Below are positions 1 to 56,212 of a DNA stretch of 64,000 nucleotides, in pieces (within the stretch, counting starts at the first letter, position 1; every line of letters starts with the position of its first letter). The position numbers and the translations under genes are program-made. This DNA comes from Octopus vulgaris (lineage: Eukaryota), in contig OX597823.1 of the NCBI GenBank assembly GCA_951406725.2, positions 20,026,001 to 20,090,000 on the forward strand, written 5' to 3'. The notes under the pieces were generated by a model, which was not told where the DNA came from, did not search any database, and saw nothing but the letters and a program-made list of their open reading frames with translations.

Positions 1-67
1 TATGAATATATATAAATATATGTATACATATATATTTTCATATATACATATATATATATATATATAC

Positions 68-128
<61 letters not shown>

Positions 129-157
129 CTAAACTGGCAAAATGACCATTCCGAAAT

Positions 158-196: not shown

Positions 197-306
197 CCTG
201 CTCGCTTAGCCAGCGGGTTGGCGTCGTTCGATGGCTAAAACAATGCGAACGCATTGTGACCAGCGATGTGTGTAGCAACATCTGAGGGTCTGGTCGGTCA
301 CGTGAT

Positions 307-22092: not shown

Positions 22093-22128
<36 letters not shown>

Positions 22129-22205
22129 TCGGGGTGAGTACTTGATAATTATAAGCACCTGTGTATACCGTTTGGTGGTGTAGGTGGTGGAGTAAATTGA
22201 TCAAA

Positions 22206-22640
22206 ATAAAATAAAAACATGATGCGAAGGATTCAGCGGTACATATGTTTCGGGCCTTTATTAGACAGATTTATAACAATGCATAATGTATGTCTGTGGC
22301 CTTCTTCAGCCGCGCACAACAGCTTCCACAAGGACATGTGTTACATCAAAAATTCTTGGTTGGGGATGCGAATCCTCTCATTCGCGTACGACATAATGCG
22401 GCAGCAGCATAGAATTGAAGCGTCCATCTCCTTCTTCTCTCAATTGAGAAAATGTCGTACGCGAATGAGAGGATTCGCATCCCCAACCAAGAATTTTTGA
22501 TGTAACACATGTCCTTGTGGAAGCTGTTGTGCGCGGCTGAAGAAGGCCACAGACATACATTATGCATTGTTATAAATCTGTCTAATAAAGGCCCGAAACA
22601 TATGTACCGCTGAATCCTTCGCATCATGTTTTTATTTTAT
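22206..22640. repeat. Large inverted repeat (189-bp arms, 57-bp spacer) in a (TA)n-flanked element
   Basis: 22206-22394 is the reverse complement of 22452-22640; the ORF track shows identical N-terminal peptides on both strands. Confidence 0.95.
22533..22610 (+). ncRNA. Type I hammerhead ribozyme (mirror copy at 22236-22313, minus strand)
   Basis: gcgg CTGAAGA a ggcc..ggcc c GAAA catatg TA|ccgc; stem III palindrome ACATATGT; predicted cut after 22606. Confidence 0.8.
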
Positions 22641-29604: not shown

Positions 29605-29674
29605 TGAATGTATGTATGTATATATGTATGTATGTATGGATGTATGTATGTATGTAAGAATCGTTATCGCAACT

Positions 29675-29945
29675 ATGTCACCAACTTCAAGAGAATCAAT
29701 AAGAGACATCCAACATCTTTGGCCGATTTTGTATAGCGACTGAAGGAGGATAAAATTAAATTCAACAGAACCTGGTCCATAGCAAGGTACGCGGAATCAT
29801 ACATTATCATTTCCAGGAGATACCAACTCTGCTCCGAGGAATCCCTGTCTATTCTGTGGACAAATGAGAAGATCGTTAATAGAATTTCTGACAGACTCAC
29901 AAAATTCCTACACGCATATAAATGTACTTTCGCACAAAGCAGTGG
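29675..29945 (+). pseudogene. Penelope-like element, C-terminal remnant of the GIY-YIG endonuclease
   Basis: ..LKEDKIKFNRTWSIARYAESY..RRYQLCSEESLSIL..VNRISD..H, resembling the PLE W.I..A..Y..C.LC.EK..I..LN.R.E..H pattern. Confidence 0.55.
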
Positions 29946-36324: not shown

Positions 36325-36429
36325 CTCTATCTCTCTCTCTATCTATCTATCTATATATATATACTATAAAATATAATACTGTATAATATAATATATTATA
36401 TAATATAATTATATATATTATGACCTGGG

Positions 36430-37535
36430 ATATTCAGCAAAGAATATCCCTACACTACTAAACGAACTTTACACAAGGATACTGCTAGAGAGAAGAATAG
36501 ATTTGATCAGGTGGATGAGATGGAAGGCTTTTTACTTTAACCAACCCAAATCATCAACGGAAGCTGAATATTTTGGGCTTAAATGTAGGAAGTTCCCATA
36601 TCAGATCAAGGAACAGGAAGCCTTTGAAAACGACCTGCTGGATATAATACCCCGCCTGAAATTCCAAAGTCCCCAAACCCTTTCCAAAATAAGACACCCG
36701 CAAGATTAAATCTTCTGATAGGATCATTCTCTACTCCGACAAACCAAAAATCTGTATAGGGTAAGTAGTGATAAGTAGTGACACACACGCACAGCTCCTT
36801 AGCAACAGCATCACACAAACGTACAGGTGGGTCACTCCCCAACGCACACATATGATAGTAATAATCAGGAAACCAGAGATATAGCTTTTAAACTAGGTAT
36901 AGAAGATAGGGTAGAGACTCTGGCGAAGAAAGAGGCCTTCATAATGATCAAGGGTCATAAGCCTAACTTTGCCTCTAACTCTAAATGCCGGCTGATAAAC
37001 CCTGAGAGAGATCAGGTGAGCAAATAGCTCATCAGAAAGATCTGTAACGGCATTAGAAAAACCTCTGACCTCACCCTATGGCGCAACACCAAAGCGATCA
37101 TTACATGGTTTGAGGCCAACAGCGGCAGGGGTAGAGCTAGTTTTACCCAATTTGATATAGTGGACTTCTGATATAGTGGAGCTCCTGTTAAAGGCACTAG
37201 ACTTCGCTAGAGCCTTTACTGAGATCAACGGCGAGGACAAACGCATTATCATGCACGTCAGAAGAACCCTACTCTTCAGTAAGGGGTCAGCTTCGATCAA
37301 ACGTACCGACCCAGAGTGCTCCTTAGACGTGGCAATGGGTGCTTTTGACAGTGCGGACTAGCTTTGGCCCCTTCAAGAACTACGCGCTGGTAATTTCAAG
37401 AGGAGCTAACAGCCACACGCTGGATGAGCTCAGAAAAGATCTCACGAGCACCATGAACTCCTTCGGATTGAAGGTCACTATTGAGACCAACCTAAAAACA
37501 GTTGATTTCCTTGATGTGACCCTGGACTTGGATAG
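36430..37535 (+). pseudogene. Penelope-like element reverse transcriptase remnant
   Basis: YSAKNIP, RWMRWKAFYF, FENDL, IEDRVETLAKKEAFIMIKGHKPNF..KCRLINP, QFDIVDF, DVAMGAFDSAD, GLKVTIETNLKTVDFLDVTLDL; frameshifted. Confidence 0.85.
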
Positions 37536-38268: not shown

Positions 38269-38720
38269 AAATAATTTAATTAATTGTATTTTATTTTCTA
38301 GTAATGATATATTATAGTTTGTTATTCTTTTCTTATATATGTTAAAATTTTATTTTTATAGCTATAATAAATATTTATACCTCTTTATTCTATATTTATT
38401 TACAGCAGAATATATTTGTTAAGATATTTTGTATTTTACACGATTATATACGTATATTTTTATATTTTTTTTATTTAATTATTTTATTGTTTTTATCTTT
38501 GACCTGAAGAGTGCCTATATTTAAATTGAATTGATTTTACTGTTATCATTTCTTAAATATAGCCACGAAACACGTGTAGTCATTTTATTTATTATTTTTC
38601 ACATTACTTAATCATTGGTATATGTTTTTTATCTTATATTTAATTTTTTCAATAGGATGTAATTTTTTTCTATATGGTATAATTTGATTTTTTCATTGTT
38701 AAATCGATAAAAAGTGTCTT
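37550..38720. other. Extremely AT-rich non-microsatellite tract ending near a hammerhead
   Basis: Very few G/C bases by eye; follows the PLE RT. Confidence 0.7.
38500..38582 (+). ncRNA. Canonical type I hammerhead ribozyme
   Basis: tgac CTGAAGA gtg.ctatatttaa..ttaaatatag.cac GAAA cacgtg TA|gtca; all core nucleotides and the G10.1-C11.1 pair intact; predicted cut after 38578. Confidence 0.88.
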
Positions 38721-54444: not shown

Positions 54445-54485
<41 letters not shown>

Positions 54486-54490
<5 letters not shown>

Positions 54491-56174
54491 ATCAAGGAAC
54501 GGCCATAATAGGCCGTTCACCCACTAGAAATAACAGCCAAAGCTTCAACCGCAAATAAAAGTTAATTCTGTAAACCAGGAGAAAATTTAAAAAACATTTA
54601 CCCTGTAATTTCTTATACGGTATACCGTTTCATCTGCTGATTAATGGTAAACTAACCTGATTAAATTAAATCAAGCCAATCTTCCACAGGCCATCAGAAT
54701 CTTCAGTAAGAAATAGCCCAAGACGGAGCAGATATTTTCACGAGGCATTTCCGACCTTGCCAAGTATATATCTGACCTAAAATTTTCAAATCGTCGCACT
54801 CGCGCCAAATTTATCGGCAGCAAATAAATATAAGCCGTCGATTCCATTACGGAATTAACCAGAAAATTCATAATTAATCAATATAGGGTGGCAAAAAAAT
54901 TTTGTAGAATTCTTTTGCCACCAGCGGCCTAGTAGGAAAAAATTAAATAGTCATAGACCATTTTTAAGTTCAACATCAAACAATCAAGGAACGGCCATAA
55001 TAGGCCGTTTACCCACTAGAAATAACAGCCAAAGCTTCAACCGCAAATAAAAGTTAATTCTGTAAACCAGGAGAAAATTTAAAAAACATTTACCCTGTAA
55101 TTTCTTATACGGTATACCGTTTCATCTGCTGATTAATGGTAAACTAACCTGATTAAATTAAATCAAGCCAATCTTCCACAGGCCATCAGAATCTTCAGTA
55201 AGAAATAGCCCAAGACGGAGCAGATATTTTCACAAGGCATTTCCGACCTTGCCAAGTTTTCAAATTTTAGTGCGACGATTTGAAAATTTTAGGTCAGATA
55301 TAAACTTGGCAAGGTCGGAAATGCCTCGTGAAAATATCTGCTCCGTCTTGGGCTATTTCTTACTGAAGATTCTGATGGCCTGTGGAAGATTGGCTTGATT
55401 TAATTTAATCAGGTTAGTTTACCATTAATCAGCAGATGAAACGGTATACCATATAAGAAATTACAGGGTAAATGTTTTTTAAATTTTCTCCTGGTTTACA
55501 GAATTAACTTTTATTTGCGGTTGAAGCTTTGGCTGTTATTTCTAGTGGGTGAACGGCCTATTATGACCGTTCCTTGATTGTTTGATGTTGAACTTAAAAA
55601 TGGTCTATGACTATTTAATTTTTTCCTACTAGCCGCTGGTGGCAAAAGAATTCTACAAAATTTTTTTGCCACCCTATATTGATTAATTATGAATTTTCTG
55701 GTTAATTCCGTAATGGAATCGACGGCTTATATTTATTTGCTGCCGATAAATTTGGCGCGAGTGCGACGATTTGAAAATTTTAGGTCAGATATAAACTTGG
55801 CAAGGTCGGAAATGCCTCGTGAAAATATCTGCTCCGTCTTGGGCTATTTCTTACTGAAGATTCTGATGGCCTGTGGAAGATTGGCTTGATTTAATTTAAT
55901 CAGGTTAGTTTACCATTAATCAGCAGATGAAACGGTATACCGTATAAGAAATTACAGGGTAAATGTTTTTTAAATTTTCTCCTGGTTTACAGAATTAACT
56001 TTTATTTGCGGTTGAAGCTTTGGCTGTTATTTCTAGTGGGTGAACGGCCTATTATGGCCGTTCCTTGATTGTTTGATGTTGAACTTAAAAATGGTCTATG
56101 ACTATTTAATTTTTTCCTACTAGGCCGCTGGTGGCAAAAGAATTCTACAAAATTTTTTTGCCACCCTATATTGA

Positions 56175-56179
<5 letters not shown>
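54486..56179. mobile_element. Retrozyme-like / Penelope pLTR-like array: ~492-bp unit, ~1.6 copies minus then ~1.9 copies plus, inside (TA)n
   Basis: Period 492 (54486 to 54978) and 491 (55269 to 55760); inversion junction at ~55260-55269; four hammerheads. Confidence 0.9.
55847..55951 (+). ncRNA. Type I hammerhead ribozyme with long stem II (other copies: 55356-55460 +, 54609-54713 -, 55101-55205 -)
   Basis: tttctta CTGAAGA t tctg..cagat GAAA cggtataccg TA|taagaaa; 7-bp stem I; palindromic stem III ACGGTATACCGT; predicted cut after 55944. Confidence 0.8.

Positions 56180-56212
<33 letters not shown>

Follow-up and report, generated by a model that had tools for sequence, protein, structure and literature searches.

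A dispersed hammerhead retrozyme-type family of Octopus vulgaris with two fixed, paired 3' ends in head-to-head insertions

Introduction

Animal non-LTR retrozymes are tandem hammerhead repeats (PMC7229834) which have been tied to the pLTRs of Penelope-like elements (PLEs; 10.64898/2026.07.22.740005); when a target-site duplication is present, it is longer than 4 bp. Retrotransposition of these retrozymes from cleaved or circular RNA has been proposed in both sources. In the case of PLEs, inverted 5'-truncated copies and a one-sided tail are known marks (PMC3846280, PMC8557442), and non-autonomous members are known in Chlamydomonas (PMC8557442, PMC9977147). The formation of the inverted copy and of the tail, and the role of the hammerhead, are stated there as open questions (PMC8557442, PMC11167929). 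All statements on published systems refer to the available parts of the cited texts.

The stretch of DNA analysed here (the window; 64,000 nt of Octopus vulgaris contig OX597823.1) carries an array that is one copy of a dispersed family of the non-LTR retrozyme type, a known kind of element. As in the described animal retrozymes, the tandem units are non-coding and low in GC, with one type I hammerhead each, the copies are dispersed, and PLEs co-occur; those retrozymes have also been proposed as non-autonomous PLE derivatives, and a mollusc (mussel) example is already published. The unit of 491 nt is longer than the 150-450 nt of PMC7229834, yet it falls within the 51-972 of the preprint (10.64898/2026.07.22.740005). 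The Octopus ribozyme differs from those of the animal retrozymes in its 68-nt stem II, and no pLTR homologue was found among three PLE families; unlike them, the family is known here from sequence alone. The most informative property of the array, overlooked in the original prediction (an earlier reading of the window's letters), is that its two arms end at two fixed, paired 3' ends, termed A and B.

Materials and methods

The host assembly (2.8 Gb, 227 contigs) was scanned, and arms were mapped at 119 loci in four sets: 39 top-scoring loci, 40 loci taken in order along contig C1 (39 picked by the B end and one by the A end), 10 picked by ribozyme, and 30 picked by the A end. Unit positions with a sign are numbered from the cleavage site. 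The pairing count excludes 29 single-armed or unresolved loci of the 119; L180 represents two insertions, and a weak third match in L047 was dropped. The loci L041, L172, L188, L249, L254, L256 and L259, whose arms are too short for BLAST, look A+B by eye and were not added to that class, with L249 kept among the five "other" insertions. Nineteen loci of the oldest subfamily were inspected and stand outside all counts. One counting pattern was dropped as uninformative, its control count being as high as that of the test. The forward matches of the A-end and B-end patterns (230 and 663, respectively) are not comparable, as older subfamilies escape the A pattern, and the reverse counts run too high.

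Results

The array is composed of two head-to-head arms of the 491-nt non-coding unit, pointing apart, between runs of (TA)n (54445..54485 on the left and 56180..56209 on the right). The left arm (54486..55259, minus strand, 774 bp) is 5'-truncated at unit position 340 and meets (TA)n with its 3' end at site A, which is +130 in cleavage-site numbering. The right arm (55269..56179, plus strand, 911 bp) is 5'-truncated at unit position 307 and reaches (TA)n with site B (+234 to +237). The truncated ends are joined head to head by 9 nt (55260..55268) which are complementary to the sequence a few bases rightward, likely as the product of templated end joining. A ~492-bp unit, repeated head-to-tail and then inverted within (TA)n, had been predicted and is borne out by the period of 491-492 bp and the two arms.

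Each arm holds one complete monomer and no more (55454..55944 on the plus strand, 491 nt between two cleavage sites; 54616..55107 on the minus strand, 492 nt between two intact ribozymes). The predicted release of a monomer between two ribozymes could apply to one complete monomer per arm; on the plus strand the upstream ribozyme is damaged, and for this reason the minus arm is the better monomer source. The monomer is short (491 nt), low in GC (36%) and highly self-paired; the folding check proposed for 55454-55944 showed that it folds better than all 100 of its shuffles (z -4.79). The further hairpins that had been noticed are both present. Hairpin A (56042..56063, plus strand), with site A at 56073..56077, marks the first fixed 3' end, and hairpin B (56130..56165, within a feature that spans 56130..56179 with site B) the second; both are putative start sites of reverse transcription. 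The motif TTGATT is placed 6-8 nt before the end of site A and recurs before the end of site B, and the "tail" of the unit between A and B measures ~104 nt.

The longest ATG frame in the unit has 66 codons (55689-55889) and starts exactly at site B. Among the young and middle-aged units it stays open in 166 of 202. This frame was considered as a gene and rejected, since in the oldest subfamily it is truncated to only 16-18 codons, and its recurrent changes (1 synonymous versus 4 non-synonymous) give no sign of coding selection; the original view that the unit has no credible ORF stands. No ORF for a reverse transcriptase (RT) or GIY-YIG endonuclease was found inside any mapped insertion, and nearby PLE fragments all lie outside the arms. 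Elsewhere in the window there are a decayed Hydra-type PLE reverse transcriptase fragment (36422-37168, 27% identical to the 899-aa protein described below), a canonical long-stem-II hammerhead ~1.3 kb downstream of it (38504-38578), and a weak Hydra-type endonuclease fragment (29662-29886, E 1.6e-5). A second, unrelated head-to-head hammerhead insertion in (TA)n is located at 22124-22638 (CUGA at 22309 on the minus and 22537 on the plus strand); it has two different 3' ends, ~+116 and +32 from its cleavage site, a two-end layout like that of the array in a different family.

When the complete window was scanned for the motif, three intact type I hammerheads came up, each of them within the array (CUGA at 55854 on the plus strand, and at 55198 and 54706 on the minus strand). 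The plus-strand ribozyme (55846..55952) is built of an 8-bp stem I (55846-55853 with 55945-55952), CUGAAGA (55854-55860), a stem II of 68 nt (55861-55928), GAAA (55929-55932) and a stem III formed by a 12-nt palindrome, with a GUA site and predicted cleavage after 55944. The minus-strand ribozymes occupy 55100..55206 and 54608..54714, and the last bases before the predicted cuts are 55108 and 54616, respectively. A fourth hammerhead (55355..55461, plus strand, predicted cleavage after 55453) was missed by the intact-motif scan; it is damaged by G>A at 55451, which breaks a pair of stem III. A complete type I hammerhead had been claimed for each unit: this is true for three of the four, and the substitution that breaks the remaining one had itself been read correctly. 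The described parts (CUGAAGA, long stem II, GAAA, palindromic stem III, GUA site) were all confirmed, with the exception of stem I, which has 8 bp and not 7. A search of the array with Rfam models, proposed as a check of the ribozyme, failed to return a hammerhead match either at the gathering score or at E<=10 and gave hairpin-type chance matches only; the length of stem II probably explains the miss.

Across 60-63 loci the catalytic core does not vary, apart from N7 (all four bases) and H17 (A or C). In a gap-free alignment of 26 haplotypes, 98.5% of alignment cells pair (31-43% in slid controls), and five stem pairs, four of them in stem I, are changed on both sides; shuffle controls overstate this covariation because the paired changes stem from a few events along a tree. 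Core conservation and the 26-haplotype alignment, i.e. purifying selection and covariation among genomic copies, uphold the type I hammerhead as a maintained structure. The trimmed 115-nt motif is the only stretch that folds as a hammerhead (-32.1 kcal/mol), while the minimum-energy folds of the whole monomer and of a 121-nt stretch bury the core in a competing hairpin of about the same stability (-32.7 in the longer context). The lineage of the window has a U-U mismatch at the base of stem II. Judging from the conservation and from the arm stops described below, the hammerhead very probably cleaves in vivo. At least six other long-stem-II hammerhead families are present in the flanks of fetched loci (L020, L059, L072, L076, L080, L106, L107, L111, L149, L155, L158).

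The genome-wide search for copies of the unit gave 968 candidate places, and the 39 that were scored are mostly 96-100% identical; it established a dispersed family, multicopy on many chromosomes and without LTR structure. The ribozyme-core pattern occurs 2,753 times in the genome, versus 18 times for its reversed control, in agreement with the predicted retrozyme type; a further 135 matches come from the separate motif of an older subfamily. Three age classes can be recognized, with ~97%, 90% and 80% identity to the window; the subfamilies are ~20% apart, and the ribozyme stems covary across them.

The outer 3' ends of the arms fall at +116..141 (A, mostly +129..133) or at +225..246 (B, mostly +232..237). 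They adjoin (TA)n in 202 of 205 cases, and within (TA)n a target-site duplication is unreadable. Among the two-armed insertions (n=91), 85 are A+B, one is A+A, none is B+B, and five have one end elsewhere. The proportion of A+B is 30/32 in the top-scoring set, 29/30 in the loci picked by B, 22/23 in those picked by A, and 4/6 in those picked by ribozyme. Locus selection cannot create this rule, because a second B end was open to the loci picked by B, and a second A end to those picked by A; the observed numbers of B+B and A+A there are 0/30 and 0/23, respectively. Both sites are situated just 3' of a conserved hairpin; in each, TTGATT precedes the end by 6-8 nt and a short AT stretch matches the target. 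The simple junctions between arms (n=81) comprise 28 overlaps of at least 2 nt, 18 blunt or nearly blunt joints, and 35 with insertions. All the marks of PLE insertion are found, namely the fixed 3' end, 5' truncation, inverted copy, tail and microsatellite target. Recurrence of the two-arm layout at 91 insertions, together with the ribozyme matches counted above, confirms that the array is real and not an artefact or a chance event. Collision of the RT with the other start site was considered as a cause of arm stops and is not supported (A arms at +200..246, ratio 1.49, p=0.12; B arms at +100..141, ratio 1.26, p=0.23). B arms stop in excess at +200..246 (p=0.007).

The 5' ends of the arms are scattered, save just 3' of the cleavage site, where +1..+40 contains 53 ends versus 19.6 expected. 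At similar exposure, 49 ends fall at +1..+30 and 11 at -30..-1. In the A+B loci (n=85) the stop at the site is found in both arms in 20 cases, in one arm in nine and in neither in 56, so that joint stopping has an odds ratio of 56 (p=3e-11). At 17 of the 20 both-stop loci no arm crosses the site, which results in insertions of ~340 bp without a ribozyme. The +1..+40 bin was picked once the first 79 loci had been seen, and it was found again in 10 of 22 newly added A-picked loci; the stretch is U-rich, and sequence may have some effect. The joint stops likely represent run-off at the 5' end of a self-cleaved RNA common to both cDNAs, followed by trimming. In the autonomous Hydra-type element described below, arms at loci L236 and L210 stop at, or within 10 nt of, its own cleavage site, which suggests that the footprint is wider than the retrozyme.

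Arms of the same locus differ by 0.56% (46 pairs), versus 3.7% between loci (7,041 pairs). Of the variants private to one locus, 20 occur in all of its units, 12 of these across both arms, and the arm lengths within a locus correlate (rho 0.52). Unit-private variants are mirrored in the sister arm in eight cases and unmirrored in 88; since they are unmirrored, the units were identical at insertion. Such identity agrees with a template that was either one monomer circle, copied over and over, or a transcript of a very young array. The cleavage site is crossed at least once by 139 of 205 arms and at least three times by 34, and the longest arm reaches 4,605 bp (9 units). In three loci, L034, L039 and L058, each of the two arms runs past one or two sites before it ends at one; a linear multimer whose 5' end was cleaved accounts for this better than a circle does. 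In seven long arms variants recur every 2-4 units, and these point to later unequal exchange. Both cDNAs were probably copied from the same RNA molecule. Involvement of a circular template is plausible, a candidate to which we give even chances.

Part of the unit is present in 20 sequencing runs with six organism labels from nine studies. The four runs that were compared consist entirely of contigs, in which starts, ends, strand and level are unreadable; none is recorded as RNA, and their RNA nature is guessed. The joint 56178>55688 occurs in three runs; a circle junction would equal the genomic tandem junction, so sequence data cannot separate the two. Three contig ends (two runs, two organisms) match 55921-55963 and otherwise, by eye, carry only the common allele of the family. 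G is found at 10/13, 10/12 and 7/9 of the A positions over this stretch, and none of 279 genomic copies has more than two such A>G changes. The edited ends are single contigs, and the two listed for run X10 have a depth of 2-3 and are probably one molecule. A pattern dense in A>G changes is characteristic of A-to-I hyper-editing of double-stranded RNA. The changes are located on the ribozyme strand, across GAAA and the cleavage site; at this low depth, and in runs guessed to be RNA, they support editing rather than prove it, and they likewise support the double-stranded RNA which the inversion had been predicted to supply. In run X17, record 16 is a relative in organism D that is devoid of ~46 nt between sites A and B; the tail length can therefore change between species.

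The same genome contains intact, active-looking PLE frames in many copies (Hydra-type of 899 and 727 aa, Neptune-type of 781 aa). The GIY-YIG family search led mainly to the Neptune-type family, whose pLTR is unrelated to the unit; the Hydra-type endonuclease query led to the 899-aa family and a second query to the 727-aa group. The 899-aa ORF belongs to a very young autonomous element with a 3,624-nt unit and a canonical long-stem-II hammerhead. On inspection, the protein shows a DKT motif, an RW motif, no CCHH, and CxxC and CxH flanking E and N. The element ends in (TA)n at +57..70 or +219..227, with one of each in 24/24 complete two-armed loci (counted from mapped loci; 13 of the 24 were picked as inverted endonuclease-match pairs and not by ends). 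In the Neptune-type family the ends are ~40 nt apart, with one of each in 2/2. From this same two-end rule in autonomous PLEs it follows that the inversion is the ordinary print of PLE insertion. The two-end layout common to the retrozyme and the autonomous Hydra-type PLE thus lends support to the Penelope-type mobilisation put forward originally, whereas the idea that the inversion is a special supply of ribozyme pairs at this array is not upheld, as it is the ordinary insertion product, seen in 91 insertions among the 119 loci.

The unit shares no sequence with the three PLE families (z<=1.0 relative to shuffled sequences). When the loci of these PLEs were searched with a profile, one stray copy of the retrozyme family was the sole match. 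A motif likeness between the oldest subfamily and the tail of the 727-aa element was rejected, as it failed the shuffle test (z<=1.0). At four solitary ribozyme sites no ORF is joined to the arms. Other Hydra-type families are numerous in the genome, seen as fragments, and the pLTR comparison covered the three families. Because no PLE sharing the unit sequence was found, assignment to the Hydra clade rests solely on geometry, target and ribozyme type; on these grounds a mobilising protein of that clade appears somewhat favoured. The RNA of the 899-aa element has no detectable unit sequence, and the element is a model of the partner, not a proven partner. At locus L233 (G000:C1:119513000-119522900) the Hydra-type PLE, with 17,842 candidate matches, forms full-length tandem arrays of 3,624-nt units; its 899-aa frame has long N/S-rich inserts, and Pfam finds no RT or GIY-YIG there. 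In the Neptune-type family (L102:1268-4968 and relatives) an upstream frame of 479 codons overlaps the 781-codon RT frame, and the 504-bp pLTR is accompanied by a non-canonical hammerhead-like core.

Discussion

The reading we prefer, with a probability of about 0.75, is that of a non-autonomous, PLE-mobilised retrozyme primed twice on one RNA, at sites A and B. The unit would very likely be transcribed in the ribozyme sense, for which the A>G-dense contig ends give support, and the hammerhead, with similarly high probability, would cut the transcript in vivo. A PLE protein would break both strands of the (TA)n target, one DNA end priming at +130 and the other at +235, through AT pairing of 2-4 nt; the pairing of the ends is observed, and priming is its likely cause. 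Both cDNAs would then run toward the 5' end of the RNA, probably on the same molecule. On a cleaved linear RNA they would run off at +1 and leave a dead 340-bp insertion without a ribozyme, while on a re-ligated circle (with the even chances given above) or on an uncleaved multimer they would pass the site and produce tandem arms. Host end joining may fuse the cDNA ends head to head via microhomology or short insertions, as the observed junction types suggest. Transcripts through both arms would form double-stranded RNA, likely A-to-I edited, which would destroy the ribozyme core. A stricter form of the mechanism, which we offer tentatively and at somewhat less than even odds, is obligate twin priming: a protein dimer would bind two copies of an RNA signal on the same molecule and allot one start to each end of a double-strand break, and the genome would record both the cut linear RNA (as dead 340-bp insertions) and rolling-circle copying of the re-ligated circle (as tandem arms). 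If true, this would be direct genomic evidence that hammerhead cleavage shapes the insertions of PLEs and retrozymes.

The same PLE machinery and paired priming could also act without any circle, on linear read-through multimers transcribed from young arrays and trimmed at the 5' end by the ribozyme, the long arms being regrown later by unequal exchange. The arms of L034, L039 and L058, which cross sites and then stop at one, and the period of 2-4 units in the variants of seven long arms speak for this version. Outside the near-site class, moreover, 11 of 65 arm pairs end within 20 nt of one another (5.7 expected, p=0.026), as would be the case on a linear RNA with one 5' end, and in the available text of PMC11167929 uncleaved RNA is the main in vitro substrate of another PLE. 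However, the sister arm hardly ever repeats a unit-private variant (8 mirrored versus 88 unmirrored), passage through a single monomer is the simplest explanation for the 20 locus-private variants present in every unit, and arms reach 9 units (4,605 bp) though each round of copying truncates. A purely linear template is thus possible, but we regard it as rather doubtful. The coincident ends are too few for another model, in which a single priming event is followed by fold-back of the cDNA; the fold-back would generate the second arm, whose end would be set by an endonuclease cut at resolution. Fold-back or self-priming has been proposed for rotifer Penelope elements (PMC3846280) and for the tail (PMC8557442). 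This model, too, would yield two arms that share a haplotype, with the tail in only one of them, and a few junctions are near-perfect palindromes (L179, L186, L266). Fold-back needs coincident 5' ends, which were found only in those 11 of 65 loci outside the near-site class, and either arm can far outrun the other (L048, A 3,187 versus B 258 bp; L037, B 2,727 versus A 446 bp). In addition, both ends share the hairpin-plus-TTGATT layout and the AT microhomology, and both tail ends are RT start sites in another PLE, as far as described in PMC11167929. We therefore consider fold-back unlikely.

A repeat that arose at the DNA level (satellite, MITE-like or fold-back), or an assembly artefact, with an incidental ribozyme-like motif, would agree with the absent Rfam match, the simple-repeat flanks and the target-site duplication unreadable in (TA)n. 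Such an origin is very improbable and already largely refuted by the contrast of fixed 3' and ragged 5' ends, the spread over many chromosomes, the covarying stems, the stops at the cleavage site, the autonomous PLEs with the same layout, and the presence of the unit in runs of six organism labels.

Under the preferred reading, double priming on one RNA by a PLE protein, the family provides countable in vivo footprints, i.e. near-strict pairing of start sites and cDNA run-off at the cleavage site. A protein that uses a small RNA to write two cDNAs, into both ends of a break, would also be relevant to RNA-templated gene insertion. The 491-nt RNA and a very young autonomous Hydra-type element, found in the same genome, form a small substrate set for a reconstitution assay.

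In comparison with endonuclease-bearing PLEs (PMC3846280, PMC8557442), the Octopus retrozyme is alike in the inverted 5'-truncated copy, the tail at one end only, the (TA)n target and the partial tandems, and unlike in that it has no RT or endonuclease ORF and its tail is ~104 nt versus 30-40. In the available text of these papers the tail is optional or often at one end, whereas here it follows a counted rule (85/91). The Hydra-clade PLEs (PMC8557442) share the (TA)n target and the canonical hammerhead, and the Octopus 899-aa element has, by eye, the motifs of the clade. Poseidon from Anolis (PMC11167929) is similar in the two internal starts downstream of the hammerhead which bound the tail, in the predicted dimer, in the cutting and extension of both DNA strands, and in the AT-rich target. 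In vitro, according to the available part of that work, Poseidon shows no strand difference in the start site, no need for cleavage, and no RNA reads ending at the site; in the Octopus retrozyme, unlike in Poseidon, insertions combine the two sites as a pair, and cDNA ends accumulate at the cleavage site.

The available sources on retrozymes contain no description of head-to-head arms whose 3' ends are fixed at two sites and paired, and the word "inverted" occurs 0 times in the main text of PMC7229834. A literature search (few subscription journals, supplements aside) found no paper on this retrozyme family, a counted pairing rule, a cleavage footprint or retrozyme editing. What is likely new with respect to the known systems is the paired two-site architecture in a retrozyme, its ~104-nt tail, and the genomic evidence for cleaved RNA as the template.
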